Shown here in pieces: positions 7,877-10,800 of a DNA stretch of 32,393 nucleotides. Made by a program: the position numbers and the translations under genes. Source of the stretch: Blastocatellia bacterium (GTDB lineage: Bacteria; Acidobacteriota; Blastocatellia; Chloracidobacteriales; JADJPF01); the NCBI GenBank assembly GCA_023265235.1, contig JAHFUF010000002.1, positions 1-32,393 on the forward strand. Reading direction: 5' to 3'. Position 1 is the first letter of the stretch. Each line of letters begins with the position of its first letter. Under the pieces are notes generated by a model. It did no database searches and was not told the DNA's origin. It saw only the letters and a program-made list of their open reading frames with translations.

Positions 7877-10800
7877 TTACTCGGAACCTGAGAAACTCTT
7901 TAACCATTTATCAACATCCTTATCTGAGAGTTCATTTAGTTTATTTAATATTTCTTTATTTGAATCAACATTTGGTATTCTATCACTTATTGTTTTCTTT
8001 ATTTCTCCTACCTTATTTTTACTTTTTTCTTCAATAATCGAAGCTAGCTCAGCTACAGTAGGGTTTTCAAAAATATCTCTTAAGCTTAATTCTATGCCAT
8101 TTTCTTTTCTTAAGCGGCTAATAATTTTAGTAGCAATTAAAGAATGCCCTCCTAAATAAAAAAAATTGTCATTTAGTCCTACTTTAGCAACATCCAATAT
8201 ATCTACCCATATTTTACTTATAGTTCTCTCTATATCGCTTTGCGGTTTAATAAAACCTTCTAAACCATCTTTAGAGTCAACAGTTAAAGATTGTTGGTCT
8301 ATTTTTCCATTAGAGTTTTTTGGAGGTTCTTCTAAGAAGACAAAAGCACTAGGGGTTATATGTGTTGGTAGCAAATTAATAGATTCTGTTGGGTTGGCTA
8401 AAATAGAGCAAAACAACTCTTGATAGTTTTTAGCAATTCTTTCTATAGTTTCTCCTTTAAACAAGTCAGTGTTATATTCAATATCAACCTGTAAACCCTG
8501 TTCTAACGGATTAATAAAAACAATCATATCAAACTTGGCGGTTTTATATTCAATATCAAATCGATTAACAGTTATTCCTGGTAAATTCAAATTATCTAAT
8601 GAATTTTCCTGTAGCATAAACATAACTTGAAATATAGGTGTATAACTAGCATTACGCTCTGGTTGAAGAAATTCTACTAGCTTTTCAAAAGGCATTTCTT
8701 GATGTGCATAAGCTCCTAAGCAAGTTTGTTTAACTTTCTCTAAGAGGGCAATAAAACTTTCTTCAGCAGAAAGCTTAGTCCTTAAAACCAATGTATTAAC
8801 AAAAAATCCCATTAATTTTTCTAAATCTGAATGGTTTCTCCCTGTTATAGGGCTACCCAAAACAATATCTGTTTGTCCTGTGTATCTATAAAAAAGCAAT
8901 TTGAAACTAGCTAACATTGTCATAAATAATGTAGCGTTTTGCTTTTTACTAAAAGATATAATTTGGTGGCTTAACTCTTTATCCAAACTAAGTTTATAAC
9001 GAGCACCATTATAAGTCTGAAATGCTGGTCTAGGTAAATCACTAGGAAATGTAAGTAGTGGGTTAAGATCTGCTAGGGTTTCTTTCCAGTAAACGAATTG
9101 TTTTTCTAACACTTCTTTTGATAATTTATTACGCTGCCAAATAGAATAATCAGCATATTGTATGGGTAAAGCTTCATTACTATCTTCTTTTCCTAAACTA
9201 AATTCTTGGTAATAATTACTTAATTCTTTTAAAAATATAATTACTGATTGCTCGTCTGAAATTATATGATGCATGTTAAAAAAGAAAATATGTAACTCCT
9301 CTGAAAGTCTTATTAATAGAGACTTTAAGAGTGGTAATTTAGTTAATTTAAATGGCTCGCTAGACTTTTGACTAAGTATAGATAAGGCTTTCTGCTCTCT
9401 TTCTGGCTTTGATAAAGAGGTTAAATCGATTATTTCTAGAGGCAAAATTAAACTATCTGAAATTACTTGTACTGTTTGCTCTTGGACAAGATCAAGATTA
9501 AAACTTGTGCGCAAAATTTCATGTCTACTAACTATTTTATTTATACTTTTTTCTAAAGCTATAAGATCAAGGCTTCCTAATAATTCCAAAGCTATTGACA
9601 TATTATAAGCACTATCAGACTCAAGTTGGGCTAATATCCACAACCTTTGTTGTGAGAATGATAATGGTAGGTCTTGGTTTCTAGCCACTGGAATTATAGG
9701 AGTAGTCTCGTTAAAGCTAGAAGAAAGTGTTACTTTTTCTGCTAGGCTAGCAACGTTAACTGATTCAAAAATATCACGTACAGAGGCTTCCACATTAAAG
9801 CTTTTTTGTATCTGGAAAATAATTTGCAATGCTAAAAGAGAATGTCCCCCTAAAGCAAAAAAACTATCATAGATCCCTATTTTTTCTTGTTTAAGTATAT
9901 CAGTCCAAATTCTAGCAATTACTTCCTCAACATAATTTCGAGGAGCAACAAAACTTTCTGATATGTCTTGAGTATCTGTTGTAGATAAAGAGTTTCGGTC
10001 TATTTTCCCATTTGGTAATAAAGGTAGAGCCAACAAAAAAACATACCTTGTAGGAATCATATAATTAGGCAATTTGGCTTTTAGTTTTTCTTGGATTTCT
10101 TGTGATGTCACATCTGTTTTTGCTACTAAATAAGCAACTAAATTTTTATTTCCCCTAATGTCTTCTTCAGCAATAATTACAGCTTCTTTTATTGCAGGAT
10201 CTTCTAAAACTACTGTCTCTATCTCACCTAGTTCTATGCGGTGACCTCTTATTTTTACTTGGCTATCTAATCTCCCTAAAAATTCTATTTTTCCATTTGG
10301 TAAATAACGGGCAACATCCCCTGTATTATACAAACATGCTCCTAATTGCTGGCTAAAAGGGTTAGGAACAAACCTTTCTGCTGTTAGATCTGGGCGATTA
10401 AAATAACCTCGACTTAGGCCATCTCCAGCAATATGCAAATAGCCTAAAACACCAATAGGAACAGGCTTTAGTAAACTATCCAAAATGTAAACTTGAGTAT
10501 TATCAATAGGTGTTCCAATAGTTATTTTATTTTCGCTTAAACTTACTTTTTCAATAGTTGACCAAATAGTAGTTTCTGTTGGCCCATATAGATTCCAAAC
10601 ATTATCACTAAAACTACATAATTGTTGCGCTAAAGCTAGCGGCATTGCTTCGCCACCACACAAGACTTTTGGATTATTTTCTCCTTTCCATCCAGCAGCT
10701 ATTAGTAAATGCCACATAGAAGGAGTAGCTTGCATTATTGAAATATTATTTTCCTTTAGTTCTGTTAATAAAGCTTTTCCGTCCACTGTTGTTTGACTAG

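Follow-up and report, generated by a model that had tools for sequence, protein, structure and literature searches.

A nonribosomal peptide synthetase from a Blastocatellia bacterium with an adenylation-less terminal module, a vestigial A10 block and a carrier-less N-terminal adenylation domain

Gene B of the stretch analysed here, a window of 32,393 nucleotides (nt) comprising positions 1–32,393 of contig JAHFUF010000002.1 from a Blastocatellia bacterium, encodes a 2815-aa nonribosomal peptide synthetase (NRPS) whose last condensation (C) domain is joined to its last carrier (T) domain through a mere remnant of an adenylation (A) domain, and whose N-terminus carries a complete A domain with no carrier beside it. 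It is one of four synthetase genes in the window, labelled A, B, C and D, with non-NRPS genes to their right, and occupies 7877–16324 on the minus strand (all coordinates are window positions); its domain order, derived from the list of open reading frames (ORFs), Pfam and a domain map with local hidden Markov models (HMMs), is A1-A2-T1-C1-A3-T2-C2-(A10 remnant)-T3-tail. The best explanation as a whole, to which we assign a probability of roughly 55%, is that an in-frame deletion removed the A domain of the third module, that the remaining stub serves as a tether, that T3 is a working carrier loaded from outside its own module, and that A1 is the candidate donor.

The truncated terminal module and its origin

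In the gene B protein, Pfam recognises three AMP-binding, three AMP-binding_C, two Condensation and three PP-binding stretches, and HMMs built from the window's own domains read the protein as A-A-T-C-A-T-C-(35% of the A-end model)-T, so that the order A-A-T-C-A-T-C-T given in the initial annotation was correct. The last C domain, C2 (8375–9676, minus strand; residues 2217–2650), reaches 355.8 bits over positions 3–442 of the 456-position Pfam Condensation profile, a higher score than that of C1, shares 52% of its residues with the second C domain of gene A, and carries HHIISD at residues 2357–2362 together with an LCL-like N-terminal LPLSFSQQRLW; the residue after the final D of HHIISD is E, where G is usual. 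C2 is followed directly by a vestigial A10 block (8282–8374, minus strand; residues 2651–2681, LLPTHITPSAFVFLEEPPKNSNGKIDQQSLT), the sole remainder of the module's A domain, within which the peptide ITPSAFVFLEEPPKNSNGKIDQQSL spans residues 2656–2680 (8285–8359, minus strand). An A-T linker of normal length (8225–8281, minus strand; residues 2682–2700), which aligns without gaps to the linkers of six intact modules, then leads into T3 (8039–8224, minus strand; residues 2701–2762; Pfam PP-binding, 57.4 bits), whose phosphopantetheine attachment site is Ser2728 of a GGHS motif (8141–8143), and the protein ends in a tail with a docking-like motif, ILNKLNELSDKDVDKWL (7880–8038, minus strand; residues 2763–2815). 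The positions that had been reported for the A10 peptide and the carrier serine agree with this map, and the description of T3 as intact was borne out by its serine and its PP-binding score. Two details needed revision. The remnant, previously taken as 26 residues, is 31 residues long and starts at L2651/L2652, ‘LLPTHITPS’ aligning with ‘xLPxYM(V/I)PS’; and ‘ANPTESINLLP’, previously read as the C-A linker, aligns with ‘...NNPSHKVSTLP’ of the paralog and is the end of the C domain, so that no C-A linker remains.

The A10 remnant in gene B is genuine and far beyond chance expectation. An HMM of the window's six intact A-domain ends matches it over residues 2651–2681 (23.5 bits, E = 3e-9), and a 31-column position-specific scoring matrix (PSSM) built from 364 A10 segments gives it +42.4 bits; the same matrix gives the six genuine A10 sites 60.7–76.3, whereas none of the 9,431 other stretches of the four proteins exceeds −41.2 and no shuffle out of 20,000 exceeds −32.8. 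Upstream of this block, motifs A1–A9 are absent from the terminal module. No Pfam match to AMP-binding or AMP-binding_C was obtained between residue 2650 and the start of T3 (2701) when this region was scanned in pieces at E ≤ 10, a local A-core HMM gave no match between C2 and T3, and the A-end HMM was covered over just 35% of its length. The in-frame loss of the A core, with the extreme C-terminus of the domain fused to C2, as the initial annotation had proposed, is thereby upheld by HMM, PSSM and Pfam alike; a normal-length AMP-binding match at residues 2650–2690, which it had named as evidence to the contrary, was looked for by Pfam and not found. The terminal module has the composition of an A-less C-T module, namely a C domain followed by a carrier with no functional A domain between them, as well as that of a truncated A remnant of the FbsE type, with a recognisable A-domain part devoid of core motifs. 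It does not resemble a module with an inactive carrier, T3 having kept its serine and an ordinary family score.

The ancestry of this arrangement can be read from gene A (2–7771, minus strand), which lies directly downstream of B, has the order A-T-C-A-T-C-A-... by Pfam and DNA self-comparison, leaves the window, and encodes 2786 aa on a contig of the European Nucleotide Archive (ENA). Apart from A1, gene B is colinear with gene A: 4683–6658 and 11700–13678 share 64% DNA identity (A1-T1-C1 of A and A2-T1-C1 of B), and 1604–3517 and 8603–10519 share 69% (the end of A2 with T2-C2 of A and the end of A3 with T2-C2 of B). Because, according to Pfam, a complete A domain comes next after the second C domain of gene A, the ancestral form of B would have been A-T-C-A-T-C-A-T; on the evidence of this paralog, the comparison shows gene B to have begun as a three-module synthetase like its tandem neighbour and to have lost its third A domain through an in-frame deletion of approximately 490 codons. 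Among 158 NRPS loci retrieved from genomes and metagenomes, the gap between a C-domain end and the next A10 block plus T domain is 440–560 aa in 282 of 336 intervals, and in gene B it is 0. When the A10 block plus T domain was used as a tblastn query, the alignment began at query residue 2 (B residue 2652) in nearly every normal module, and in a library-wide phmmer search, in which giant multimodular NRPSs predominated and the complete gene A paralog was missed, the best-matching stretch began at B residues 2650–2652 in most of the top 150 proteins. The same search yielded five further examples of A-less or truncated modules. The third A10 block and T3 of gene A lie beyond the window. Many apparent A-less relatives suggested by the match spans of genome searches were discarded, tblastn having traced them to matches of the upstream T plus C domains in ordinary C-A-T modules.

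With an intact paralog next door, both deletion breakpoints are readable to within 1–2 residues. Each falls at an ‘LP’, one ending C2 and the other opening the A10 block, and these two shared codons are a possible microhomology that is too short to test. A search of the junction for direct repeats, inverted repeats and antisense ORFs returned nothing meaningful; an 85-codon antisense ORF at 8166–8423 (plus strand) that covers the junction is a mechanical ORF in an AT-rich NRPS gene, with no evidence of being a gene. Repetitive NRPS modules in a short-read metagenome assembly invite the suspicion that the end of C2 was misjoined to the A10 block of another module. However, the join is in frame and outside any long repeat, the nearest paralogous DNA being 69% identical, and the stub copies no intact A10 block of the locus and contains residues that functional A10 blocks almost never carry, which a misjoin would not yield. 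A protein index places a protein identical to the gene B product on a 20,522-bp ENA metagenome contig and separately gives 35,131 bp for the longest contig, two records that may not be independent assemblies. An assembly artefact is thus extremely improbable.

When three segments of the junction were scored by PSSM against 364 homologous segments, the stub, with roughly half of the usual signal gone, fell to the 0.5th percentile (42.4 bits against 78.7 ± 11.4), and the A-T linker (23.1 bits against a mean of 24.0; 41st percentile) and T3 (128.6 bits against 132.2 ± 20; 40th percentile) were ordinary. I2656 in place of Met, T2657 in place of Val, P2667 and K2669 each in place of Leu, and Q2677 in place of Arg are residues found in 0–1% of the 364 intact segments. 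Provided that these stub changes came after the deletion, a decayed stub next to an ordinary linker and carrier points to an old deletion and to a carrier that is apparently still under selection, since a carrier free of constraint would have had time to decay too. In an AlphaFold2 model of residues 2210–2815 (mean pLDDT 89), C2 mostly exceeds 90 and T3 forms a confident helical bundle. Over approximately 2659–2689, a stretch that takes in most of the stub, the model has a pLDDT of 44–55 and no secondary structure, for which reason the stub is better regarded as a flexible tether than as a folded element. From the structure model and the conservation scores we infer that the stub is no longer catalytic and forms part of a flexible C2-T3 tether of about 50 residues, and that T3 is probably still a working carrier.

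These scores also bear on the view that gene B, being redundant beside gene A, is decaying, with T3 never loaded and no product, or only a truncated shunt, emerging from it. Such a fate would agree with the position of B as the tandem paralog of an apparently complete gene, with the presence of several irregular joints in the cluster, and with the origin of the sequence from a single metagenomic lineage in which no orthologs were found. It is at odds with the intact reading frame of 8.4 kb, the preservation of every carrier serine and every C-domain HHxxxD motif, the higher Pfam score of C2 relative to C1, the normal family scores of T3 and the A-T linker beside a decayed stub, and the low dN/dS of A1 (0.21, described below), and we regard a dead module as quite unlikely.

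The carrier-less A1 domain and the loading of T3

A1 (14750–16222, minus strand; residues 35–525) scores 302 bits against Pfam AMP-binding, is completed by an AMP-binding_C match, and is the candidate donor for T3. It is joined to A2 through a short stretch delimited by blastp and blastn end points (14648–14749, minus strand; residues 526–559), in which the homology to gene A ends near residue 548 and is followed by the A2 leader, A2 itself beginning 34 residues past A1. Its paralog is the first A domain of gene A (6191–7654, minus strand; identified by Pfam and blastp), with which it shares 81% amino acid and 84% DNA identity (14683–16285 against 6121–7717), the likeness extending from codon 1 up to the first residues of the T domain of gene A. 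A1 is a duplicate of this domain with an altered specificity code, DALWLGGTFK in gene B against DVFWFGGTFK in gene A. The initial annotation had passed over this duplication. A comparable direct A-A fusion was sought among the 409 A-domain ends in the 158 loci, and none was found.

A1 has no adjacent carrier and keeps every core motif, including the A3 motif and the A10 lysine, which lies in NEK near residue 520. The ratio dN/dS between A1 and its paralog is 0.21 (dN 0.11, dS 0.55), in the range of a canonical pair of A domains, the second and third of gene A (0.26), on which basis A1 appears to be functional and under purifying selection. Complete, carrier-less and apparently maintained by selection, A1 is a candidate member of the ClbH-A1 type, in which an N-terminal A domain serves a remote carrier. 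The synonymous divergence between A1 and its paralog is a mosaic, with dS of 0.19–0.47 in the flanks and 0.7–2.1 over codons 154–303, which include the specificity pocket; this pattern suggests that either the flanks were homogenised by gene conversion or the sub-domain with the pocket was swapped.

T3 is flanked by an apparently sound C domain and a docking-like tail, and would need to receive an aminoacyl group before it could take part in synthesis. By analogy with characterised A-less modules, T3 would be aminoacylated by an A domain outside its own module, C2 would join the T2-bound dipeptide to the residue on T3, and the tripeptide would leave through the C-terminal tail of B to a subunit that starts with a C domain, a description that gene C fits. 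It is likely, on the strength of that analogy, that T3 works as a carrier and that its loading domain lies outside its module. The donor in this scheme would be A1, the duplicated loading A domain of gene A with its altered code, which is the obvious candidate because it is carrier-less, apparently selected and part of the same chain. The co-occurrence of an extra A domain and a missing one in a single polypeptide looks non-accidental, as no A-A fusion was seen at the 409 A-domain ends and none of four comparison proteins has a spare A domain in cis. That A1 loads T3 is, in our estimate, a possibility somewhat short of an even chance, and slightly more tentative still is the fuller proposal of A-domain relocation, according to which module 3 lost its own A domain and is served intramolecularly by a duplicated, re-specified A domain at the far N-terminus, about 2,200 residues away. 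The interpretation offered in the initial annotation was therefore partly supported, in that the deletion, the carrier and the domain order stand, and the loading of T3 by A1 is plausible but unproven.

A second A-less C-T terminus, which had been overlooked, is found at the end of gene D (27293–28888, plus strand; C at residues 2028–2452 and T at 2481–2559 by Pfam; orphan carrier at 28652–28888). No A10 remnant was detected there, either with the A-end HMM or by reading the sequence. Because gene D also ends in C-T without an A domain, one orphan A domain faces two orphan carriers, and A1 might charge the gene D carrier as well. This imbalance is one reason to consider that T3 is functional and has another donor: A3 acting twice (9983–11452, minus strand; residues 1625–2114; code DILQLGLIWK), whose module directly precedes C2, the first A domain of a docked gene A protein, or a free-standing A domain encoded outside the window, with A1 serving the gene D carrier or acting as an alternative starter on T1. 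An A domain that acts twice is known from iterative siderophore synthetases and from yersiniabactin HMWP2, and the literature holds further precedents of one A domain charging several carriers. In addition, A3 is just one domain away from T3, and P0300, P0330 and P0336, three NRPSs in the comparison set, have A-less C-T modules with no spare A domain in cis, which suggests that loading by a neighbour or from outside is common. Another donor would, however, leave A1 partnerless in its own protein despite purifying selection, the ORF list contains no free-standing A-domain gene within the 32 kb window, and nothing in the sequence favours A3 over A1. We consider another donor rather unlikely, though less so than a dead module.

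Several observations weigh against the loading of a functional T3 by A1. The argument for selection on T3 presumes that the odd stub residues arose after the deletion; the orphan carrier of gene D may be the target of A1 instead of, or besides, T3; and T3 is nearest to T2-type carriers (48%), not to the partner carrier of A1's paralog (40%). An ortholog of B was sought in 185,579 species genomes, in JGI metagenomes and in a set of 5.8 billion proteins, where no ortholog was found and the best match had approximately 47–48% identity. The best relatives of B come mostly from cyanobacteria and some other phyla, with 42–47% identity. Furthermore, the cluster is an orphan metagenomic one, and other irregular architectures in the locus, a C-C' tandem and a polyketide synthase (PKS) module followed by an E domain, could equally mean that the cluster is in flux.

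Organisation of the surrounding locus

The long ORFs of the window, whose G+C content is about 33%, comprise five complete ones and one that runs off the left edge. Gene C (16612–21300, plus strand) is divergent from B and has the order C-C'-A-T: its first part (16612–19300, plus strand) encodes tandem condensation-family domains at residues 27–457 and 480–889, with the motifs HHIISDNWS and HHLIGDGWS, respectively, and no carrier between them, after which A-T follows. Its N-terminus, LSLTEKRELLAKLLQK, is docking-like and looks as though it could pair with the C-terminal tails of B and D. The type of motif seen in the tail of B also occurs in the tail of gene D (LLAEIEQLSDEQVEELL) and in several database proteins that end in C-T, and the gene B tail is accordingly predicted from its sequence to act in docking. 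Given that both A and B open with an A domain, as initiation-type synthetases do, and that gene C opens with a C domain and a docking-like N-terminus, A and B may act as parallel starters that each form a tripeptide.

Gene D (21212/21293–28987, plus strand) encodes a PKS/NRPS hybrid with the order KS-AT-KR-carrier-E-C-T. Its longest ORF has a TTG start at 21212, 89 nt within gene C, and the ENA gene call (2564 aa) implies an ATG at 21293, in which case gene D would share the last 8 nt of gene C, an overlap that suggests translational coupling. The carrier of the PKS module KS-AT-KR has a GGDS motif, which is typical of carriers ahead of epimerisation (E) domains. Behind this carrier come a complete E domain (PLTPIQKWF, HHLVIDIISW), a C domain of the DCL type, the second carrier, which has no A domain, and finally a docking-like tail; it is unusual for an E domain to act after a ketoreductase module. 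No thioesterase or any other release domain is visible within the whole window. The right flank (29011–32377, plus strand, and beyond) encodes a CcbP-like calcium-binding protein and a beta-propeller/cytochrome c protein, and longer contigs continue further right with an outer-membrane efflux protein and then a 1302-aa protein.

For the specificity codes, we take DALWLGGTFK of B A1 to indicate a branched-chain aliphatic residue, DASIIAGICK of B A2 an aromatic-like residue, with uncertainty, the code of B A3 presumably Gly, the code of A A1 an aliphatic residue, and DACQFGLID- of A A3 a Gln-like one, all on the basis of the Stachelhaus codes. No substrate is predicted for the A domain of gene C (DIWEVTADDK). 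When the codes of the locus were sought in the literature, Gln alone could be matched to a paper: DAWQFGLIDK of the second A domain of gene A agrees with a Gln code, and this domain is predicted to activate Gln (PMC8313283). The second and third A domains of gene A (3211–4406 and 49–1244, minus strand) are 88% identical at the DNA level, with dN/dS of 0.26 and nearly the same Gln-type code, which indicates a recent internal duplication or conversion.

Relation to known A-less modules and significance

Both A-less modules and remnants of truncated A domains have precedents, and gene B adds one more. In the WS9326A system, A-less C-PCP architecture is represented by Cal19 with Cal22/Cal23, with loading by a trans-acting A domain, and further trans-loaded A-less modules occur in viomycin synthesis, in module 9 of syringomycin SyrE and in yersiniabactin HMWP1 (PMC7539972). 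The terminal module of B resembles the WS9326A type in that its C domain leads directly to an intact carrier, the module lacks an A domain and the residue would come from an A domain elsewhere; it differs in having its candidate donor fused to the N-terminus of the same polypeptide and in keeping an A10 stub, and B is known from its sequence alone. In fimsbactin biosynthesis, FbsE contains a truncated A domain, and its carrier is predicted to be loaded with Ser in trans by the A domain of FbsF (PMC11661926). Both proteins place a partial, non-functional A remnant ahead of a carrier that relies, or in B would rely, on another A domain, whereas FbsE belongs to a siderophore pathway of another organism, and B keeps only the last 31 residues. 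For A1, the nearest parallel is colibactin ClbH (A1-C-A2-T), in which the A1 domain at the N-terminus activates Ser and transfers it to ClbE, a separate carrier (PMC5055756). Both are multidomain NRPSs with an extra, carrier-less N-terminal A domain, which in ClbH serves a non-adjacent carrier; in ClbH, however, the target is free-standing and the next domain is a C domain, whereas A1 of B is fused to A2 and its candidate target is part of the same chain, about 2,200 residues further downstream. The yersiniabactin synthetase, which the initial annotation had cited as precedent, is a fair one in general, but FbsE, WS9326A and ClbH are closer.

Other natural truncations were found among the comparison loci and proteins. 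L036 (3730–4309) keeps a complete Asub in which the catalytic Lys is replaced by Glu; L005 (9226–9964), L079 (11710–12448), L094 (9589–10246) and P0313 keep the A6–A10 part, 25–33% of the core plus Asub, and P0313 has two truncated A domains and no spare A domain in cis. Clean C-T joints are present in L031, L037, L114, P0300, P0330 and P0336, in the last of these twice. In all of them the part that is kept, if any, is the carrier-proximal end of the A domain. As in B, their A domains have lost the N-terminal part in frame, but the remnants are longer or absent, none is reduced to the A10 block, and none is accompanied by an extra A domain in cis. In the literature library searched, no mention of ‘degenerate adenylation’ domains turned up for fungal siderophore synthetases. 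What is distinctive in gene B is the A10-only stub, an ancestry readable from the neighbouring paralog, and the combination of a missing and an extra A domain in one protein.

The usefulness of this locus lies in bringing together a measurable decay of the stub, an undecayed carrier and a spare, apparently selected A domain within the same protein. More generally, A-less modules are a source of errors in genome mining, since the order of modules no longer predicts the product. If A1 does not load T3, gene B is one further catalogued A-less module. If it does, gene B would offer a template for engineering, in which a resident A domain is trimmed to its last 30 residues and specificity is supplied by an A domain fused elsewhere, and the relocation of A domains would represent an evolutionary route by which one residue of a peptide can be changed while the C-A-T interfaces of the module are left untouched.

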